A stretch of 64,000 bases of DNA from an uncultured delta proteobacterium (lineage in GTDB: Bacteria; Desulfobacterota; Desulfobulbia; Desulfobulbales; Desulfocapsaceae): assembly GCA_963806525.1 (NCBI GenBank), contig CAWDYJ010000026.1, forward strand, positions 133,175 through 197,174, written 5' to 3'. The notes beneath the pieces are model-generated. The model was not told where the DNA came from. It did not search any database and was given only the letters and a program-made list of their open reading frames with translations. Made by a program: the position numbers and the translations under genes. Shown one piece after another: positions 19,341-52,321 of the stretch (its first letter is position 1; every line of letters starts with the position of its first letter).

Positions 19341-19930
19341 TCACTGACTGTTGCTGACTTTTCTTCCTGCGGCAAATGCCTGTAGATTAACATCCCTGAA
19401 TCGTTCCGGCACCCTGGCACGGATCACTTCCTGATATATTGCCGGATCAATGGGCAAAAAGGCTGAAAGCGCCCCCACCATGACCACATTGGCAGTCTTT
19501 ATCTCGCCGACCTCTCTCGCAATATCAAAAGCATCCACCGGCACCACGACAATATCCCGTTCAAGCAAATGGTTGAGCACATCCTGCGGGATATTCGGCC
19601 TGACCGGTAGCAACCGACGGCGGCAGAATCTTCTGGGTATTGACGATTACCTTGCTGCCCTTATGCAGAAACGGCAGATAGCGAACCGCCTCCATCATCT
19701 CAAAGGCCATCTGGATATCAGCACAACCCGGCTCAATCAGAGGCGAATAGACTTTTTTACCATAGCGCAACTGAGCGGTAACCGAGCCGCCGCGCTGGGC
19801 CATCCCATGCACTTCACTCTTCTTGGCATCGTAGCCTGCCGACAAGCAGAGCATAGACCGTAATTTCACTGGCCAGCAGAATGCCCTGACCACCCACCCC
19901 TGAAAAGAGGATATTTCCCGTATCTTCCAT
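19341..19930 (-). CDS. iorB: Indolepyruvate:ferredoxin oxidoreductase beta subunit (frameshifted)
   Basis: MEDTGNILFSGVGGQG start, SEVHGMAQRGGSV, and ANVVMVGALS, spread over several frames. Confidence 0.9.
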
Positions 19931-21742
19931 TACTTTCTCTCTCCTCTGGTGATGGCGTTAAATTTACAAAGCGATGCACACTGGCCGCAGTCATTACAGA
20001 GAATCTCGTCGATCTTGGAAATTCCTTTCTGTTTTTTCCGGTAGCCGCGCTCTTCGGCTTCACCTTCGGCAAAAGAGGTCCAGCTGATCGCCGGACAGCC
20101 AAGACGGATACAGGACATACAGCCAACGCAGTTCTCCTGGTTGGTGAAATAGGAGACCGGTTTGCGTTCTTTCATCTCCGGAAGCAGCACACATGGTGCC
20201 TCGGAGATGACCACCGACGGCTCCTGCAGTTCTACTGCTTCTTTTAACACTTTGCGGGTCTCAACAACGTCGTGGGGATTGACCTTATAGACATGTTTTA
20301 CCCCAACGGCCCGACACAGCGCTTCCAGATCAAGTGCACTGGCCGCCTCTCCTTTGATGTTATAACCGGTGGCCGGGTTCTGCTGCTGCCCGGTCATGGC
20401 GGTGATACGATTGTCGAGGATAATCAGCGTTGACGCGGAATTATTATACACCGTGTTGATAAGACCGGTAATACCGGAATGGATAAAGGTGGAATCACCG
20501 ATAACCGAAACCACCTGATTATATCCATCATCGCCCAGGGCCTTGGCCATCCCGTGGGCGATAGGCACCGAAGCCCCCATGCAGACGCAGGAATCCATGG
20601 CCGACAATGGCGGCAGGAAACCGAGGGTATAACAGCCAATATCTCCGGAAACGAAAACCTTCATCCGCGACAGGTTAAAGAAAATACCCCGGTGCGGACA
20701 CCCGGCACACATATTCGGCGGCCGGTTGGGCAGTTCAACCGGGGTAAATAATTCGGGTCCGGAACCCGGCTCAATCGCCTGGCGCACGATGGCGGTGTTC
20801 AGCTCACCCTGATTGGGAATGCAATCCTTGCCGTGGCACTGCAATACCCATGGCCTTGATATGGGTCTCAAGAAAGGGGTCAAGCTCTTCGACGATATAG
20901 AGTTCATCGACCATAGCGGCGAAATCCCGAATCTTTTTTTCCGGCAGCGGCCAGCACATGCCAAGTTTTAATACCGCGGCCTCGGGAAAGGCTTCTTTCA
21001 CATAGAGATAGGAAACCCCGGAGGTGATAAAACCTCTTTTGGTGTCCCCTTCATCCACCCGGTTAAATGCGGCCGTTTCCGCCAGTTCCCGGCACTTTTG
21101 CATGCGCTCTTCGACGACAGCCCGACGTTTGCGGGCAATAGCCGGCAGCATAACCAGTTTTCCCGGTATCTTGTTAATACCGCAGGCAGGATGGGAGCTA
21201 TTCTTCTCACCCCTCAGAACCACGCCCTTGACATGGGACACGCGGGTGGTAATCCGCAGCATAACCGGAGTATCAAGATCCTCACTGAGGTCAAAGGCGA
21301 GTTTCACCAGCTCCTTGGCTTCACTTGGGTCGGACGGCTCGAGCATCGGCAGCTTGGCGGCAAAGGCATAATTTCTATTATCCTGCTCGTTCTGGGAAGA
21401 GTGCATTTCCGGATCATCGGCACTGACCAGCACCAGTCCGCCACAGACTCCCGTATACGAGGCAGTAAAAAGTGGATCGGCCGCCACGTTGACCCCGACG
21501 TGCTTCATGGTGGCTAAGGATCTGGCTCCAGCAAAAGAGGCGCCGATGGCGACTTCCAGCCCAACCTTTTCATTTGGTGCCCATTCAGTATAGACTCCCT
21601 CATATTGCGAGAGGTTTTCCATGATCTCCGTTGATGGCGTTCCGGGATACCCGGAGGCAACCTTCACTCCGGCCTCATAGACGCCTAAGGCAATGGCCTC
21701 ATTGCCGGACATCCAGAGAGCCTTGTCATTTATTTTTGTCAC
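19930..21742 (-). CDS. iorA: Indolepyruvate:ferredoxin oxidoreductase alpha subunit (frameshift near 20810)
   Basis: GNEAIA, YPGTPSTE, MKHVG, SSQNEQD, CAGCPHR, GDIGCY, GDSTF.HSG, and two C-terminal 4Fe-4S motifs. Confidence 0.93.
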
Positions 21743-26010: not shown

Positions 26011-26118
26011 AAATAACAATTGTGGATTGGACACCCTCGGTATAGTCTCAATTGTCAACGGTATCAAAAATTGTGCCCTTCCGGCCCGGCTGAATTAATA
26101 TCAAAGGACGAATATAAA

Positions 26119-27656
26119 ATGATCGATGAAATAGAACACAAACTTAAAACAAGACATCTCCGCATAGAAGACTACCCGGTATTGCATGATCTGTCTGTTA
26201 AGGCCTATAAAGAGGTTGCAGCGCCCTGGACCAAAGAAGAAATAACTCGATTAATAAAATTATTTCCGGAAGGCCAGATATGTATTGAAGATAATGGCAT
26301 ACCTGTGGGCATTGCCCTGTCGGTGATAATCGATTTCAGCCTTTTCGGAGACCAACACTCCTACAAGCAGATTGTACGCAACGGGACCTTCAAATCACAT
26401 GACCCTGAAGGTGATTATCTCTATGGCATCGATGTTTCTGTAGATCCAGAATACCAGGGAATGCGCCTTGGACGCCGCCTTTATGAAGCTCGCCAGGAAC
26501 TGGCCGAAAATCTCAACCTCAAAGGAATATTGCTCGGAGGACGGATACCGGGTTATGGTAAATATTCCCATGAGATGAAGGCCCAGCAATACATCCTCAA
26601 GGTAAAAAACCGGGAACTGTATGATCCGGTGCTCACCTTCCAGCTCTCCAACGACTTCCATGTCCGCAACCTCCTTGATGACTATTGGCCGGCTGACAGC
26701 AGATCCCGCGGCAATGCAGTTCTTTTGGAATGGATCAACATCTATTACCAGAAAAAAACCAAGCTGATAGGCAAGACCAAATCCATTGCCAGGCTTGGTG
26801 TCGTCCAATGGAAGATGCGGCGCTTTGAATCCTTTGAAGATTTCATGCAGCAGGTCGAGTTTTTTGTCGATACAGTGAGCGACTACAAAGCCGACATAGT
26901 TCTTTTTCCCGAACTGTTCAATGCCCCGCTCATCCATAAATACGAAGGCAATAACCCGGCTGAGGCCATGCGCATGCTAGCGGGTTATACGGAAGATATG
27001 CGCCATGGCGATGACGGAAATGGCCCTGAAATACAATATCAATATTGTGGCAGGCAGCGTTCCCCAGGTTCATGATGATGGAAAACTGTACAACGTCAGT
27101 TATCTGTGTCAGGCGAGACGGCACCTGGGACAGCCAGGAAAAATTGCACATCACCCCGGACGAAGCGATTTGCTGGGGAATCTCCGGCGGCCATGAGCTC
27201 AAAGTATTTGATACTGATGTGGGGAAAATCGGCATCCTGATTTGTTATGATGTCGAATTTCCCGAGCTGGCCAGACTGCAGGCTTTAAAGGGTGTAAAGC
27301 TGTTGCTGGTTCCTTTCTGGACCGACACCAAGACCGGATATTTAAGGGTTCGGCGATGTGCCCAGGCCAGGGCAATTGAAAACGAATGTTATGTGGCTAT
27401 TTCAGGGAGTGTCGGCAATATCCCCAAGGTCGAAACCATGGGCATTCAATATTCGCAGTCGGCGATTTTTACTCCATCAGATTTTTCCTGTCCCCACGAT
27501 TCAATAGCCGCCGAAGCGACCCCAGGCATAGAAACAACTTTAATTGCTAATCTTGATCTGGATTTGATAAAGGAAATCAGAGCGATGGGAAGTGTGAGAA
27601 ATTTCGAAAATCGTCGAACCGATCTGTATGAACTGCGTTGGCTTGATGATAAATAA
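26119..27656 (+). CDS. Bifunctional GNAT acetyltransferase / carbon-nitrogen hydrolase (frameshifted)
   Basis: FPEGQ, LGRRLYEAR, GGRIPGY and DPVLTFQLSN, followed by nitrilase triad motifs FPEL, KLHITP and ICYDVEFPE. Confidence 0.9.
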
Positions 27657-27712: not shown

Positions 27713-28684
27713 ATGGAAGAAAAAGGATTGATCCACGCCCTTCTCCTTGACGGCAAGGGCGGCGGTCAACTACTTGACTGGCAGGAAATTGCCAACTGGT
27801 CCCCTGAACAAGGGGTGCTGTGGGTGCATCTGTCCTGCACAGTCCCGGAAGCGATTTCCTGGCTCGAAGAGAAAAGCGGACTGGAATCACTCATTGTTGA
27901 AGCACTGCTCAGCGAAGAGACAAGACCCCGGTCAACGGTTATGGGTGAAGGCATACTTCTTACTTTACGGGGAGTAAACCTCAACCCAGGGGCAGACCAT
28001 GAGGACATGGTTTCCATTCGTATCTGGGCGGAAGAGACAAGGATCATCACCACCAGGAGGCGCCGTTTGCTGTCTGTCACCGGTCTGATTGACAGTTTTT
28101 CAACTGGACAAGGGCCGGTGACCAGCAGCGAATTTATCAACACACTCGTTGAACTACTGACAACATATATTGAAGAGACGGTGGAGGATATTGAAGACCA
28201 GACGTCTGCCCTGGAAGAACAGGTGATGAGTTCCCATGACAGCAGATTACGTTCACAGATTTCAGGTCTTCGCCGGCAAGGCAATCATGCTGCGCCGCTA
28301 TCTCGCCCCCCAAAGAGAGGCCATTACTCGGCTTCAGGTTGAAAAAATTCACTGGTTCACAGAAAGAGACAAGAGGCATCTTTACGAGACAGCAAACAGC
28401 CTCATCCGGATTGTTGAAGACCTTGATTCTCTGAGGGAGCGGGCAAATGTTGCCCAGGAAGAGCTGGTCAATATTCTTTCGGAACAGATAAATTCCCGAA
28501 TGTATACCCTCTCCCTGGTTACAACAATTTTTCTGCCATTGAGTTTTTTAACCGGATTGCTGGGAATTAATGTTGCCGGTATCCCAGGGCCGACAAACCC
28601 ATGGGCTTTCCTGATCGTTGTGGCCATGCTCCTCTTGTCTGCTTCGGCCAGTTTCTCTATTTCCGTAAAAAACACTGGATCTGA
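27713..28684 (+). CDS. zntB: Zinc transporter ZntB (CorA family), frameshifted
   Basis: WVHL, EETRPR, LRGVNLNPGA.EDMVSIRIW, RRYLAPQR and FLTGLLGINVAGIPG (GIN motif). Confidence 0.88.
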
Positions 28685-28939
28685 ACCAGTTACGTCGCAT
28701 TCAGCTGGAGAATGTACACGTAAAAACCTGCAGGCCAGCGAAGAAAATTGGGCAATGAGATTTGCGCGCTCTTTAAGCAGACCATTCTGATTACGTATTG
28801 GTGTCTCAACCTGACCCCGGTAAACGGGAAGAAAGCCGGGATTAGTTCCTTGTGGGTATTTCCAACTACAAAATTTCAATCTACATTTCTAAGTTTCTTG
28901 TTTTTTATTACATTTTTCCAGGAGTAAGGTACTAAAATC

Positions 28940-30047
28940 CTACTGAAAAGATTTTATGAACCTGCGATCGATGAGATCTTTAATCCGAAAAGCGAGCCTG
29001 CCTGAAAAAGTTACAAACCACTTGGAGAGAACCCCCTCTCCGTCGCCCAGATTATAGATAAGCAGATAGCTGCCTCCGGGAGAAAATTTCTCAGGCTCTT
29101 TCCCGTCCAGACAGGCCATCAGGTTTTCATACAATACTAAATTTTGCCGCACAGCGTACACCCCCACCTTGTCGAGCGGCGTGGGACTAAAATAAATACA
29201 GTCTCCCCCACCAAAAATATTCTTATACCGTTCCGACCGCAGAAACTCATCGACCAGCAGGCCGCCATCCGGTCCGACCGGCAGGCCGGACCGGGCAAAA
29301 ATCTGCGAAGGCTTGACACCAACTGCCGGAAAAATAATATCGGCCTGATAGACCTGGCCATTTTCCAACAAGAGCCGGCCACTTTCTATCTGCTGGACAT
29401 ATCCGCTCGAGATTATCTCAACCCCTTTCCTCTCCAGTATTTTTCTGCAGAGATCACCGACCTTTTCAGGCCGCCCTGACATGAAATTTCGCCCGCCAAA
29501 CAGTTGTATCTTCGGGATATTGTCCCCTTTCTCCCGGCAGAGCTGGTGAATATTCCCGGCAATCTCGATAGAAGACGGACCACTGCCGACTACCGCAATA
29601 GTGATCTTTCTTGTCGCTATAAGTTCAAGAATTCTCTGCCTGGCAACGAGTAATTCCTCAATAGGTTTAGCGGTGAAAATATCCTGGGCTTTTCCATGTA
29701 TCATGTCCCGGGGAACATAGGAACCGGCATTGCAGGAAAGAACATCATACGGAATTTCTTGACCACTATCCTCTAAAAGAACACAGCTGCTTATGGGGAT
29801 CAATCCGGTACGCCTTTCCAAGGATAAACGTGCCTCCTTTTTTTTCCACAAGTTTACGGGTCGCAAAACGAATGTCATCCGGGCCATATGTCCCCCCGAG
29901 CATCCCCGGCCCCATACCACTGTAATAATGGTATTCAGAGGGCTGGATAACGGTAACGCCATAGCCTTTGGCAATAAAGGTATCGAGCCTGGCCAGCGTC
30001 ACCATGTGGGCGTGGCCGCCGCCAATGAGAAGAAGTTGTTTTTTCAT
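28940..30047 (-). CDS. FAD-dependent pyridine nucleotide-disulfide oxidoreductase (NDH-2/SQR/SelD-N-terminal-like), frameshifted
   Basis: LLIGGGHAH, YYSGMGPG, KPIE, VVGSGPSSIEIA, IFGGGDC, KVGVYAVRQ and KDLIDRRF. Confidence 0.85.
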
Positions 30048-30887
30048 GTGAGCTCTTGATGCTGGTCGATGTAGTTGCTTAATCGGGCGATGTGGCTGCG
30101 CTCCTCATCGGCGATCTGCAAAAGAATTTTTCTTGTTTCTTCCTTATCACTTCGCTCCCCTGCCCGCAAATAGAGATCAAGAGCCTGTGCTTCAATAGCC
30201 AGGGCCATACCCAGCACCTCCAGCTCCGAATCAAGATCTATCTTGTAGAGCTGCAGATATTCTTCAGTGGTCAATCCCCCTTCCATGGCCGGTTCGGCTA
30301 TTTTTTTGAGCGAATTCCTTCCTGGTAATGGTGGAACCGGTTAAATCCCTATAAAGTTCAACTAACCGCTGCTGATGAAGGATCTCAATATCAGCAAGTT
30401 TACCGAAAAGTGTTTTTGTCGATTCCCGTGAGACCTTCGCCTGCATTGACAGGTAAAAATCCCGCAGCCCCATTTCCAGGCCAAAACCGACAATAACGGC
30501 CTGTTCAGCAGTCGCTTCTCGGGTAAAGAGATGCAGACCGGTCTCCTGCCCACCGACAGCGACCTCTTTCCCCCAGGCTTTAATTCCTCCGGTCAAATTA
30601 TATACTTTGCTAAATCCTTTGCCGGCCAACATTTGTGCAGCAACCCGGCTGCGTACTCCACTGGCTCAATAGATGATAATCGGTTGGTCTTTGTCCAGTT
30701 CGTCCAATCGGGTCTCTAATTCCCCGAGCGGAATGAGTTTTGCCCCCGGCTGATGCCCGTGAGCATATTCCTTTGGCTGCCGCACATCAAGTAAGACGGC
30801 ATCATGACCAGCTGTTTGGTCGACAAGCTGCTGCGCTTCTTCCCAATTGATGGAAGAGACAGGGGTGAAAAACTGCATCCATTTCAT
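30044..30887 (-). CDS. Selenocysteine-containing rhodanese fused to a ferritin-like (rubrerythrin-type) domain
   Basis: LLDVRQPKEY..GH.PGA, then IIIY-UGA-ASGVRS with UGA (30666-30668) in frame at the catalytic Cys. It continues LTGGIKAW, then two E...ExxH helix pairs. One frameshift lies in the A-run near 30300. Confidence 0.85.
30637..30652 (-). promoter_or_regulatory. Candidate bacterial SECIS of the rhodanese gene
   Basis: GCAGC-CGGGUU-GCUGC hairpin starting 13 nt after the UGA, with a G-rich loop. Confidence 0.6.
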
Positions 30888-31174
30888 ATGGACCTCCGCT
30901 GGTTTATTTTAGGTTTCTTAAGTAACAACAATTTGATACATTAAATTTTCATACCGTCATTTGCTGCCTGTAAAAAGAACGAAACAGTCGACGGGTAAGA
31001 TTCATTTTTTAAAGATAGAAAATAGAATTTTCAACATTTTTTTTCATCCTTGGGTATACTGCGCAACGGAAGAGAGATCGACTTAATTTGTGCATATGTT
31101 ATATTGACGCAATCTTCCCTCTGTGTCAAGAAATCCATACAGATAAAACCTATTTAAAACATAGCAGAAACAAA

Positions 31175-33508: not shown

Positions 33509-34721
33509 GTGGAAACAATAATTGCCAGACAACCTATATTTGATAGAAAAGGGCGCCTTTTTGCCTACGAGCTTTTATACCGGGGTGCTGACATGCTGAG
33601 TCTGGCCAACGTCGGCGGCGATCGCGCCACAAGCTCCCTGCTCACCAGTTCATTTATTACGGAGGGTTTGGAAAAAATCAGCGGCAATAAACCCTGTTTT
33701 GTCAATTTTACGCAAGAACTGCTGCTCGAAAATCTCGTTGAAAGTTTCCCCAACAATAATATTGTTGTTGAAATTCTTGAAGACGTTCAACCTACCAACG
33801 AAATTATTGAGGTCTGCAGAGAATTAAAAGAGCTTGGATATATTCTTGCCCTTGATGATTTCGTTTATCATAAAAAATTTATCCCGCTGATTGAGCTGGC
33901 CAATATAATAAAAATAGATTTCCGGCATACCTCCATTGACCAGATAGACACAATCCTCAATTTTCTTGCTCCATATAAAATAGATTTGCTTGCCGAAAAA
34001 GTCGAAACACATGAAGAATTTGCCGAGGCGTGCAAGCTCGGATTCAAATATTTCCAGGGGTATTTCTTTGCAAGACCGGAAGTGATGAGAATAAAAGAGC
34101 TGGCAACGTCCAAACTCACCCTGCTCATGCTTTATTCGAAATAAACAAAAAGTCTGTTTCTGCGAAAAAGATGACGGAAATAATTTCCGCCGACGTCTCT
34201 TTATCCTACAGACTACTGCGATACATTAACTCTGCCTATTTTTACCTCATAAAGGAAATTCAGTCTATCTCCTATGCGGTTACCTACCTGGGGGAAAATG
34301 AGATCAGGCGCTTTGTCACGCTGGCGGTTATCTCGGAAATTTCTTCCAACAAACCCGCCGAGCTAGTACGTTTGGCTGCTGTACGGGCCAAATTCTGTGA
34401 GCAGCTCGGGCAGGCATGTCCCAGACAGACGAAACCGAACGAACTCTTTATGCTCGGCCTTTTTTCCCTGCTCCATGCCATGCTGGACACCCCGATAGAT
34501 GAGATCCTGAGTAAGATTCCTATCTCGGATGATATTAAACAGGCACTCATCTCAACGAACAGGACCGCTTTCCGGATTTCTGCAAATTGTTCTTGCCTAT
34601 GAAAGAGGCAACAGTGAAGAATGCTTTCTGGCCTTAAAGAGTCTTCGTATCCCTGAAAATCAATTATATCCCATGTTATCTTTCTTCGTTAAAATTTGCC
34701 GATATGTTTGTCAATCTCTAA
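33509..34721 (+). CDS. EAL/HDOD domain signalling protein (frameshifted)
   Basis: ARQPI, YELLYR, ALDDF, AEKVET and FQGYFF, then HDOD motifs LLRYINSA, RAKFCE and GLFSLL. Confidence 0.88.
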
Positions 34722-49520: not shown

Positions 49521-52321
49521 TCAGGCCTTGGCTATTTTACACAGTCCATCTTTGGTTGCCTGAATCTGTGTGATAATGTCATATCCATAGTTCGTGACAA
49601 CATTGCCAGGCTCGCCCACCACGTATGGTGCGGTTCCCTCCGGATATTTGTCAACATAGGATTTACCCTGCAATATGCCTGCGAAGTGATACGGCAGGAA
49701 GATGGTTTTTTCATCTACCCTTTCAGTTACAAATGCCTTGACAGTGATCTTGCCGCCTTCCGGAGACTCGACCGACATCATCTCCCCATTGCGAATTCCA
49801 AGGTCATTGGCAAGACGGGGGTTGATCTCAGCATACATTTCCGGCTGCAGTTCGGCCAGGTACTGGTTGCTGCGGGTCTCAGCCCCGGCTCCCATATGTT
49901 CGACCATGCGGCCGGTGGTAATAACATAGGGGAATTCTTTCACCAGATCCGGATTCTGCTCACTTTCAAATCGGGTATCAATACGGAAATGATCAGGCTT
50001 ATCCTTAAAGGTCGGATATTTGGCTACCAAATCCGGACGGGGTGAATGCAACGGCTCCCGGTGAATAGGTACCTGATCGGGAAAGTTCCAGACGACGCAG
50101 CGGGCGCGGGCATTGCCAAACGGCGCCATGCCACGGGCTATTGCATCCTTGATCGTTTTCTGGGACAGATCAGTCTTCCAGTTGGTTCCGGGGACAGTCT
50201 CTTTGAACTCAGAATAGCCTCCTTGAATTTCACTGCCCGGGTTACAAACACCTTTGGCGGCCAACTGATTTTCGATACGGCCACTGCCGTCGTATTTCAT
50301 CTCATCACCGAAACGATTTCTAAACGGCAGTCCGCCATCGGCCACTGATTTGGAAACATCATAGAGGATCGGAGTTCCGGGATGCTCCTCGGTCCAGCAT
50401 GGCCACGGCAGACCATAATACTCTCCGTCGCATGGACCGCCTTTGGCCTGAAGATCGTCGACATTAAAGGTATGCCAGTTCTCCATGTGCTTTTTGATGC
50501 GTTCAGGAGTCTGGCCGTTATACCCGATAGTCAACGATCCACGGCCCAGTTCACGGGTGATATCTTCCGGTACCTGCTTGATGTTCTTGTAGAACTGCTC
50601 GGCAAATCCAAGCTTATTCACCAGCAGTTCCATAATCTGGTAATCATCTTTACTGTTATGAACCGGATCGACGACCTTGTAGCGCCACTGGATCTGGCGG
50701 GAAGTCGAGGTGACGCTGCCGGAGGTTTCATACTGGCTGGCACTTGGCAGCAAGTAGACATTATCGGTCTCACAGGCAACGGATGCCATCGTTGGGAAGG
50801 GATCGACAATAACCAGCAGATCAAGCTTGTCATAGGCTTTTTTTACCTCGGAATATCGGGAGTTGGAATTTGAACCGCAGCCCCACTGAACCAAAGCCTT
50901 GATCGGAGTATCCTGGTAAATTTTCTCCGTTTCAAGAACACCGTCATACCAGCGGGCCAAAGTGAAACCCTTCTTATTCATCCACTCTTTGACTTTGAAT
51001 CTTCCCACCATCCAGTCATAATCAACATCCCAGACCCGGCACCAGTGCTTCCAGGAACCATCAGCCAGACCATAATAGGCCGGCAGGCTGTCGGCAAGAA
51101 CACACATATCGGTTGCGCCCTGGACATTATCATGACCACGGAAAATATTGGTACCACCACCTGATTTTCCCATATTGCCGAGAACCAGCTGGAGGATACA
51201 GAAACTCCGGGTAATGGAGCTGCCGATGGAATGCTGGGTTCCGCCCATACACCAGGTCAGACTGGTGGGACGGTTATTGGCCAGAAGTTCGGCAACGTGG
51301 ACAGTCTGCTCGGCCGGAATACCGGTGATATTTTCCACTTCTTCAGGGGTGTATGCCTTGGCGACCTCTACCATCTCCTCATAACCGGCCACACGGGTCC
51401 TGATAAACTCCTTGTCTTCCCAGCCGTTGGTTATAATCGCGTTTACCAAGCCCATCATAAAGGCGGCATCGGTACCCGGACGAATCCGCACGTAATCAGT
51501 ACCCTTGGCGGCAAGCTTAGTCCGCCGTGGATCGACGACAATGATCGGTGCATTGTTTTTTTCTTTGGCATGCAGAATATGCTGCATGGAAATAGGATGA
51601 GCCTCTGGTGCATTTGAACCGATAAAGATCAAGCTTTTCGCATGTCTCATATCGTTCAGGCTGTTGGTCATTGCTCCGTAACCCCAAGTATTGGCGACAC
51701 CTGCCACCGTAGTTGAGTGTCAGATACGGGCCTGGTGGTCGACGTTGTTCGACCCCCAGAAAGCAGCAAATTTACGTTGCAGGAAGGCCATCTCGGTGGA
51801 GACCTTGGCGCTGCCGAGAAACATCAGGGCATCCGGACCATCCTGTTCACGCAGGCTCAGTGAGTTTGTCGCCGATCTCGTTGATCGCCTGATCCCAGGT
51901 AATGTTGGTCCACTTGCCGTTGACTTTTTTCATCGGATTCTTGAGGCGCTTGGGGCTGGTGACCATATCAATTGCCCCGGCGCCCTTGCAGCAATGACGC
52001 ACCAAAAGATACCGGATGATCAGCGGCGATTTCCTGACGGACCCATACACCGTTATGCACTTCGGCTTCAATCCCGCAACCGACCGCACAGTAGGTACAA
52101 ATTGTTTTGACTTTCTCCGAACCGACATATGGTTCGCTCTGACCAGCTGCCGCATTGGCCTTAGTGGTCATCCTGGTGGTCATGGCCACCCCGGTCAGGG
52201 CGGCGGTTGCCGCCGACAACTTCAAAAAAGATCGCCGGGCGACCTTGGGATTGAGAGTCACTCTGCGACCGGCAGTTACAGCGCCACCCCCAGAGGAAAT
52301 CTTTAATTTGCTTCTAGCCAT
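49521..52321 (-). CDS. fdhA: Selenocysteine-containing Mo/W formate dehydrogenase alpha subunit with Tat signal (frameshifts near 52000 and 51855)
   Basis: [14 protein letters not shown]...[24 protein letters not shown] (UGA 51720-51722) and [11 protein letters not shown]. Confidence 0.95.
51693..51708 (-). promoter_or_regulatory. SECIS element of fdhA
   Basis: GGUGGC-AGGU-GUCGCC hairpin 11 nt after the UGA, resembling the E. coli fdhF SECIS spacing and loop. Confidence 0.8.

Follow-up and report, generated by a model that had tools for sequence, protein, structure and literature searches.

A probable selenoprotein operon in an uncultured member of the Desulfocapsaceae, pairing a selenocysteine rhodanese/di-iron fusion with a flavoprotein and bearing apparently artefactual frameshifts

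How should a coding sequence be read when it meets a TGA after 73 residues, resumes in the same frame immediately beyond it, and then loses its frame once in each of two adjacent genes? The question is raised by positions 28940-30887 of a 64,000-nucleotide stretch of DNA from an uncultured delta proteobacterium of the Desulfocapsaceae (assembly GCA_963806525.1, contig CAWDYJ010000026.1, positions 133,175 to 197,174; this whole stretch is the window below), where two genes lie in the same direction on the minus strand. Gene A is predicted to encode a cytoplasmic selenoprotein that joins a single-domain rhodanese to a di-iron four-helix bundle of the ferritin/rubrerythrin type, and gene B encodes a flavoprotein. 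With high confidence, we read the locus as a selenoprotein operon with artefactual frameshifts, and we propose, far more tentatively, that its products reduce sulfane sulfur. An earlier note, made by a model from the sequence alone, had described most of this structure; the features and coordinates that it gave stand, but it overlooked a single-base frameshift in each gene. The features of the locus are as follows.

30044-30887, minus strand: gene A, predicted selenocysteine (Sec) rhodanese/di-iron (rubrerythrin-like) fusion, PF00581 plus PF02915, 280 codons after a one-base correction
30567-30836, minus strand: rhodanese domain, residues 18-107 (Pfam PF00581)
30666-30668, minus strand: UGA, codon 74, for the Sec that takes the place of the catalytic Cys in the rhodanese loop U-A-S-G-V-R-S-R
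30637-30652, minus strand: upper stem-loop of the selenocysteine insertion sequence (SECIS), with a 5-bp stem GCAGC/GCUGC and loop CGGGUU, 13 nt after the UGA
30047-30518, minus strand: ferritin/rubrerythrin-like four-helix di-iron domain, residues ~124-280, interrupted by the frameshift
30301-30307, minus strand: A7 homopolymer with one surplus base, the apparent +1 frameshift in gene A
30044-30047, minus strand: ATGA overlap of the gene A stop (TGA) and the gene B start (ATG)
28940-30047, minus strand: gene B, NDH-2/SQR-like flavin adenine dinucleotide (FAD) flavoprotein, 368 codons after a one-base correction
29781-29786, minus strand: one surplus base (CTG-T-GTT) near 29783, frameshifting gene B

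The first open reading frame (ORF), of 73 amino acids, occupies 30887-30666 and ends ...IIIY at the TGA at 30668-30666; the ORF beyond it keeps this frame, confirming the earlier joining of the two, and with the TGA read as U the gene A translation runs ...IIIY-U-ASGVRSRVAAQ.... The loop U-A-S-G-V-R-S fits the six-residue rhodanese loop C-x-x-G-x-R(S/T), in which the nucleophile, here Sec, comes first, and its identification as a rhodanese active loop was sound, for it aligns with YC(A)xGGRSR in over 50 Cys homologues. There are 1207 homologues of about 276-281 aa containing both the rhodanese and di-iron domains; C74, G77, R79, S80 and R81 are invariant in an alignment of 52 full-length Cys homologues, and it is into the Cys74 column that the TGA of the window falls. 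When 60 related genomes were searched in all six frames, an orthologue turned up in 34 of the 36 from the same genus (34/35 excluding the source assembly), each with exactly one in-frame TGA in an open frame of about 280-362 aa, and other families of the order gave a mixture of TGA-containing and stop-free orthologues. When codons were read from excised loci, comprising 19 intact ones within the genus and 20 more distant, 26 proved to be Sec forms, with the TGA always the codon preceding A-x-G-x-R-S, and 13 had TGT or TGC. Across 78 named genomes, including those of Desulfopila, Desulforhopalus, Desulfobulbus, Desulfobacula and Desulfatibia, the codon is TGA in 62 and a Cys codon (TGT/TGC) in 16, which is the alternation that the earlier note had suggested looking for. 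The agreement is well beyond chance, as the TGA lies in that one column in 27/27 orthologues read through as well. Because this column is TGA or Cys throughout the orthologues, the TGA is, on comparative grounds, a genuine selenocysteine codon and not a stop. The length of the protein is equally regular, at 280 aa in 18/19 of the intact congeneric loci and 279 aa in the other (L023), and two truncated database proteins (P0057 and P0114) are 91-93% identical to gene A.

The second line of evidence is the hairpin with a G-rich loop reported 13 nt downstream of the TGA, which is present as GCAGC-CGGGTT-GCTGC at 30652-30637. This upper hairpin has 6 bp in most orthologues, against 5 bp in the window. 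Across 27 Sec sequences (26 orthologues and the window), 97.5% of the cells of the 6-bp hairpin are paired, one sequence has two compensatory changes (CGCAGC/GCUGCG to AGAAGC/GCUUCU), and 0/500 shuffled controls matched the observed pairing. Furthermore, among genes encoding the identical peptide RSRVAAQ, all six pairs are retained in 44 of 52 TGA genes, and five pairs in the remaining 8, but 6/6 pairs are found in only one of 12 Cys genes. Such retention by Sec genes alone, when the peptide is the same, points to selection on the hairpin at synonymous sites only where a UGA needs decoding. The candidate lower SECIS helix (columns 4-9 with 39-44) was paired in just 74% of cells, and is not claimed.

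The third line of evidence is the decoding machinery, selA excepted. The source assembly contains a tRNA-Sec with anticodon TCA (72 bits), selB (360 bits) and, on another contig (C28), a selD (385 bits) that itself carries a TGA in GGGU-ASK. The alternation of Cys and Sec, the conserved hairpin and this machinery together uphold the earlier proposal of a hidden selenoprotein.

Some individual genomes add detail to the distribution of the Sec and Cys forms. In Desulfobulbus rhabdoformis DSM 8777 (locus L093) the gene is a Cys (TGC) form that retains the full 6/6 hairpin, and by its sequence seems to have changed from Sec to Cys only recently. Some genomes hold gene A in two Sec-type copies (L065/L095 in Desulfopila sp. 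IMCC35006, L073/L081, G008, G011 and G019); where both loci were examined (L065/L095 and L073/L081), gene B follows one copy only. The closest full-length Cys homologue (P0002, 76% identity) is labelled Rhodopseudomonas palustris in NCBI, which is probably a contaminated or misassigned record, since every other relative is from the Desulfobacterota.

Gene A and gene B belong together across a wide phylogenetic range. Gene B is directly downstream of gene A in 68/78 named loci, spanning the Desulfobulbales and Desulfobacterales, and the pairing is kept for both Sec and Cys forms of gene A, down to about 50% identity in gene B. Of the unpaired exceptions, three are at contig ends, and two are second copies in genomes also holding a paired copy; at locus L085 just 854 nt follow gene A, which is insufficient for a whole gene B. 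The ATGA overlap with the flavoprotein gene, correctly placed by the earlier note at 30047-30044, recurs in 15/19 congeneric loci, such that the coupled two-gene module which it envisaged is conserved in both its linkage and its junction. We read the pair as a two-gene operon with translational coupling through the ATGA. Clustering all ORFs of 80 loci revealed no third conserved gene; apparent antisense clusters from the same analysis were rejected as shadow ORFs.

The frameshifts can be located by comparison with relatives. In frame 1, gene A reads ...EFAQKNSRTGHGRGIDH and stops at 30264, with its last 80 residues (MEGGLTTEEYL...) in another frame. Homologues, including the 93%-identical fragment P0114, read ...EFAQKIA(E/K)PAMEGGLTTEEYL across this break, where the window has AQKNSRTGHG... 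rather than AQKIA(E/K)PAMEGG, and hence the A7 run at 30301-30307 is one base too long. Similarly, frame 1 of gene B ends ...RIDPHKQLCSFRG (that is, ...HKQLCSFRG and a stop) and frame 2 continues VLLEDSGQEIPYD, where orthologues read HKQLVFLEESKEEIPYD with equal spacing. Once corrected, genes A and B have 280 and 368 codons respectively, which are the family lengths, and frameshifts occur in 0/19 orthologous loci.

The decisive test of the origin of these breaks is provided by rpoB and rpoC, each of which is in four pieces in different frames in the source assembly (C12:79226-87480). This amounts to six indels in about 8.3 kb, or about 0.7 per kb, compared with two in the 1.95 kb of genes A and B, or about 1 per kb. 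As essential genes show a matching indel density, the frameshifts are technical, and we regard it as highly probable that both are assembly errors and not gene decay. The assembly, in 30 contigs with 74.6% marker completeness, therefore has roughly one indel per 1-1.4 kb, making both its apparent pseudogenes and that completeness estimate unreliable. The ORF-length coverage of the source assembly relative to its relatives' loci is only suggestive, and many of the publicly available congeners are metagenome-assembled genomes (MAGs) named in the style 'MFD ... contig_N', which would fit a long-read origin. Neighbouring genes in the window are also split, with CorA divided exactly at profile position 159, and an indolepyruvate-oxidoreductase (IOR)-like gene, a GNAT/nitrilase gene and an EAL/HDOD gene likewise broken:

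27713-28790, plus strand: CorA, split
19930-21742, minus strand: IOR-like gene, split
26020-27656, plus strand: GNAT/nitrilase gene, split
33509-34602, plus strand: EAL/HDOD gene, split

The window contains a second selenoprotein gene, fdhA, which also appears to be frameshifted upstream of its Sec codon, leaving the N-terminal part in another frame:

51720-51722, minus strand: FdhA Sec site, in the canonical motif HQARIUHS, with a GG-loop hairpin downstream

What, then, does the restored gene A encode? Residues 18-107 match PF00581 at 78.9 bits (gathering score 22.2), and the last 80 residues match PF02915 (Rubrerythrin) at 28.5 bits (cut-off 22.8); with homologues containing both domains, the proposed rhodanese/ferritin-like fusion is confirmed. 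The diiron-type ligands previously noticed are present as the set E, ExxH, E, ExxH, and their columns (E138, E168, H171, E232, E262 and H265) are all invariant in the family alignment. An AlphaFold2 model of a 76%-identical Cys orthologue (pLDDT 85, pTM 0.85) consists of an alpha/beta rhodanese (1-107) and a four-helix bundle with a crossover (127-279), joined by a low-confidence linker in which residues 115-119 fall below pLDDT 50. The nearest solved domains to the rhodanese (3tp9, 5ve3, 3icr, 3nta, 8a56 and 6pfz) are all from persulfide enzymes, and the most similar domains of longer database proteins occur in PDO/sulfite-oxidase-like and CoADR-RHD-TusA-DsrE fusions. The C-terminal domain has sequence matches in 2fzf and 1vjx, covering residues 125-270, and a whole-model structure search placed it no more narrowly than the ferritin-like superfamily as a whole, the hits declining evenly from Z 15.6 to 13.3. 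There is neither a rubredoxin domain nor any CxxC pair in the 280 aa of gene A, and for want of that domain it is not a true rubrerythrin. The fusion is covered by no NCBIfam model at a score exceeding the cut-off; the rhodanese_LYCAU (seleno)protein model NF041203 was considered and rejected, scoring 45 bits against a cut-off of 115, with UxxG found where a CxU motif is expected.

Gene B, by comparison, resembles one curated family along its whole length. TIGR03169 matches the two pieces in the window at 54.7 and 177.9 bits, and an intact orthologue matches it at 251 bits over 2-365/365; there is a match to PF07992 too. However, the cut-off of this 'N-terminal to SelD' family is 310, and because 251 bits falls below it, gene B is on sequence criteria a sister of TIGR03169, not a member. 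Hence the SelD-fused flavoproteins to whose type the earlier note assigned gene B are its nearest relatives, without including it. TIGR03385 is far more remote (48 bits, cut-off 579). Across 69 gene B orthologues, both dinucleotide-binding motifs, GGGHxHM and HYYSGMGPGMLG are invariant, and the sole invariant Cys is in GGGDC, meaning that electrons cannot leave gene B through thiol-disulfide exchange of the Npsr type.

These properties suggest a mechanism, which we advance with more doubt than conviction. The gene B product would oxidise NAD(P)H and, because it is without redox-active thiols, would deliver electrons from its FAD to the di-iron site of A. Sulfane sulfur, in the form of a selenopersulfide (Se-S-S(n)), or some other oxidised chalcogen would be bound at the Sec loop of A, and would subsequently undergo reduction and release, H2S being one possible product. 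The pair might thereby act as a split, di-iron-containing functional analogue of the NADH-dependent persulfide and polysulfide reductases that bear rhodanese domains. The occurrence of the nearest rhodanese domains in persulfide enzymes favours the link to sulfane sulfur. What the sequences show is how the genes are built, the Sec codon with its SECIS, which domains and ligands are present, and that the pairing is conserved; the formation of an A-B complex, the direction of electron flow and the substrate are our inference. Going further, it is possible, if doubtful, that A and B represent an undescribed type of split flavo-di-iron enzyme, with a rhodanese-loop selenopersulfide as a catalytic intermediate, functioning in the cytoplasm as a reductase of sulfane sulfur (or of peroxide and persulfide together) that depends on Sec and is confined to the sulfate-reducing and the sulfur-disproportionating Desulfobacterota.

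Several considerations count against this interpretation. Firstly, the usual chemistry of di-iron centres is the reduction of O2, H2O2 or NO, or the handling of iron, and no di-iron centre is known to reduce persulfides; a peroxidase role is, for this reason, almost as likely. Secondly, a search among longer proteins found no A-B fusion, nor any other fusion of full-length gene A, with the rhodanese domain alone recurring. Thirdly, literature searches brought up no biochemical or genetic data on any A-B member. Fourthly, whereas tRNA-Sec, selB and selD, which the earlier note had proposed checking for, were all found, the fourth such gene, selA, went undetected by TIGR00474, PF03841 and a tblastn search using a congener's SelA in this assembly of 74.6% completeness, and to this extent Sec insertion in the source MAG is only probable. 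Nevertheless, selA is present at about 620 bits in 5/5 congeners examined, and is close to a contig end in two of them (G018:C3:187-1545 and G011:C18:25225-26583), suggesting that its location is hard to assemble. We take it to be missing from the source assembly through incompleteness.

The alternative that survives best makes the pair a rubrerythrin-like enzyme of oxidative stress, which we consider unlikely but far from negligible. Gene B would reduce the di-iron site with NAD(P)H, the di-iron site would reduce H2O2, O2 or NO, and the Sec/Cys rhodanese loop would stand in the place of the rubredoxin domain as an additional centre, either reactive with peroxide or regulatory. Enzymes that reduce peroxide typically use Sec, and the C-terminal domain combines a match to Pfam Rubrerythrin with the full E, ExxH, E, ExxH set, but the persulfide loop of rhodaneses has no known role in peroxide reduction, and its nearest relatives here are all in persulfide enzymes. 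The want of a rubredoxin domain in gene A tells against this scheme, although gene B resembles rubredoxin/flavorubredoxin reductases at low score (NorW, 27-31 bits), and a rubredoxin-like gene follows gene B in 11/80 loci. Likewise, the hosts appear from their names to be anaerobes of oxic-anoxic interfaces, yet no PerR- or Fur-type operator was recognised in the regions upstream of the orthologues.

The rubredoxin-like gene just mentioned encodes a 277-aa protein with two CxxC...CxxC motifs, on the same strand as gene B and directly downstream of it (e.g. L094:5056-5886). It is absent from the window, and to judge from its motifs could carry electrons for the module wherever a lineage possesses it. 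Upstream of gene A, a consensus scan identified one further feature:

30945-30974, minus strand: weak candidate for a sigma-70-like promoter, TTTACA-18-GAAAAT

This candidate has 9/12 consensus matches, and is a weak lead, the number of such sites in the region being no higher than expected from shuffling; across 77 orthologues there was no family-wide operator upstream, just a local promoter-like pattern. Gene A and the plus-strand gene at 31088 diverge from an intergenic region that contains a perfect 6-3-6 inverted repeat, GAAAAT-TCT-ATTTTC, at 31018-31032, which could be an operator or promoter element. Several close relatives (e.g. L065, L067, L069 and L080) have a related GGAAAATTCTG(A/G)TG...AAAAATATC some 150 nt upstream of gene A.

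A second alternative, that the module supplies selenium, is improbable. In this scheme the rhodanese would carry a perselenide that gene B reduces to selenide for SelD, mirroring the Ndh-SelD fusions. Rhodanese can bind selenium in vitro. The nearest curated family of gene B, TIGR03169, is indeed fused N-terminally to SelD, and such fusions are abundant, with an assumed role in selenophosphate synthesis (PMC2398784), but gene B itself falls short of that family's cut-off (251 vs 310), selD is on another contig, and the conserved neighbours in 80 loci include no sel gene. A supply pathway that itself requires Sec would moreover be circular, and the di-iron domain has no role in it. The co-occurrence of selD is uninformative on this point, as all 5 Cys-form genomes tested also have a Sec-SelD.

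Marginally less probable again is a helper in Fe-S repair or assembly, in which the rhodanese would give sulfane sulfur, the ferritin-like site iron, and gene B the electrons to reduce S(0) to sulfide, following the logic of the di-iron RIC/YtfE proteins. The appeal of this idea is that a single conserved pair of genes would bring together everything that Fe-S synthesis needs, namely sulfur, iron and electrons; yet there are no isc, suf or nif genes among the conserved neighbours, and the fold is ferritin-like rather than the hemerythrin-like fold of RIC. Finally, it is very improbable that the window copy is a pseudogene decaying in a genome that lost selA, despite one TGA and two frameshifts within 1.95 kb and the failure of profile and tblastn searches to detect selA in the assembly, because the TGA is a conserved Sec codon with a SECIS, rpoB and rpoC are frameshifted at the same density by technical indels, the assembly is just 74.6% complete while selA is found in 5/5 congeners (near a contig end in two), and selB, selD(Sec), tRNA-Sec and fdhA(Sec) are all kept.

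Sulfane-sulfur reduction is the function that we tentatively prefer, and if it is correct, it would be the first assigned to a Sec-rhodanese, and to the sister clade of the SelD-fused Ndh domain. The significance of the locus does not depend on this alone. Gene callers end gene A at the UGA, filling databases with half-proteins named 'rhodanese fragment' and 'rubrerythrin domain', whereas recognition of the Sec codon restores one 280-aa protein. With >1200 homologues, and 68/78 loci paired, the A-B pair is among the more widespread uncharacterised redox modules of the Desulfobacterota, joining the chemistries of sulfane sulfur, selenium and non-haem iron in a manner relevant to sulfidic micro-oxic sediments. 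As several cultured strains carry the module (Desulfopila sp. IMCC35006 and Desulforhopalus sp. IMCC35007, with the Cys form in Desulfobulbus rhabdoformis DSM 8777), its function is directly testable.

The components of this module have precedents. Sec-rhodaneses have long been catalogued in deltaproteobacterial selenoproteomes (PMC1976440, PMC1088965), in line with the earlier note, and a 2026 review lists UxxG Sec-rhodanese 'forms 2 and 4' under PF00581 (PMC13188914), a tabulated motif that the UASG of gene A fits. Compared by description only, these catalogued proteins share with gene A the PF00581 domain, Sec at the position of the catalytic Cys, the U-A-S-G motif, a deltaproteobacterial distribution and a basis in bioinformatic prediction only. 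However, the catalogues describe the rhodanese domain alone, with neither a di-iron domain nor a flavoprotein partner, and the text of the review nowhere mentions a rubrerythrin, ferritin or pyridine-nucleotide oxidoreductase partner. Cys members are already named 'rhodanese-related sulfurtransferase/rubrerythrin' in databases, but literature searches found no publication on a rhodanese fused to a rubrerythrin, ferritin-like or di-iron domain, in agreement with the earlier note, which knew of no functional characterisation of the combination; PMC3906813 deals with separate genes. The locus is best seen from its sequence as a further Sec-rhodanese within a conserved module. What sets the window copy apart is technical, namely one frameshift in each gene and an assembly from which selA is missing.

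The di-iron half of gene A shares the four-helix bundle and E, ExxH, E, ExxH ligands of rubrerythrin/erythrin-type proteins (PF02915; 2fzf; 1vjx, TM1526; nigerythrin, 1yux; symerythrin, 3sid), but has an N-terminal Sec-rhodanese where rubrerythrin has a rubredoxin domain. Its closest solved relatives, 2fzf and 1vjx, are 23% identical over the whole domain, and are structural-genomics proteins without known function. A different combination of non-haem iron domain and similar rhodanese is found in the persulfide dioxygenase-rhodanese fusions of the PRF/CstB type (Burkholderia 5ve3; 3tp9; 3r2u), the rhodaneses of which reach 43% identity to that of gene A in structural alignment. In those enzymes, however, a metallo-beta-lactamase fold houses a mononuclear iron site that uses O2, whereas gene A has a di-iron four-helix bundle and an NAD(P)H flavoprotein as its partner.

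Gene B aligns over its full length with TIGR03169/Ndh-SelD, its best family, and has the GGGHAH and YYSGMGPGMLGG motifs, but stands alone, neither fused to nor adjoining SelD, while the abundant Ndh-SelD fusions are of unknown function and assumed to serve selenophosphate synthesis (PMC2398784). The combination of a pyridine-nucleotide flavoprotein with a rhodanese loop is likewise found in Shewanella Npsr (3nta/3ntd), Bacillus CoADR-RHD (3icr), Enterococcus CoAPR (8a56) and an Archaeoglobus persulfide reductase (6pfz), with rhodaneses that match that of gene A at E values of 1e-11 to 1e-16, with 31-36% identity and root-mean-square deviations of 1.6-2.0 A. Yet those enzymes are single polypeptides, in which the flavoprotein has a redox-active Cys and bound CoA, whereas here the rhodanese is instead fused to a di-iron domain, and the flavoprotein is encoded by a separate NDH-2-like gene whose product has no redox-active Cys.

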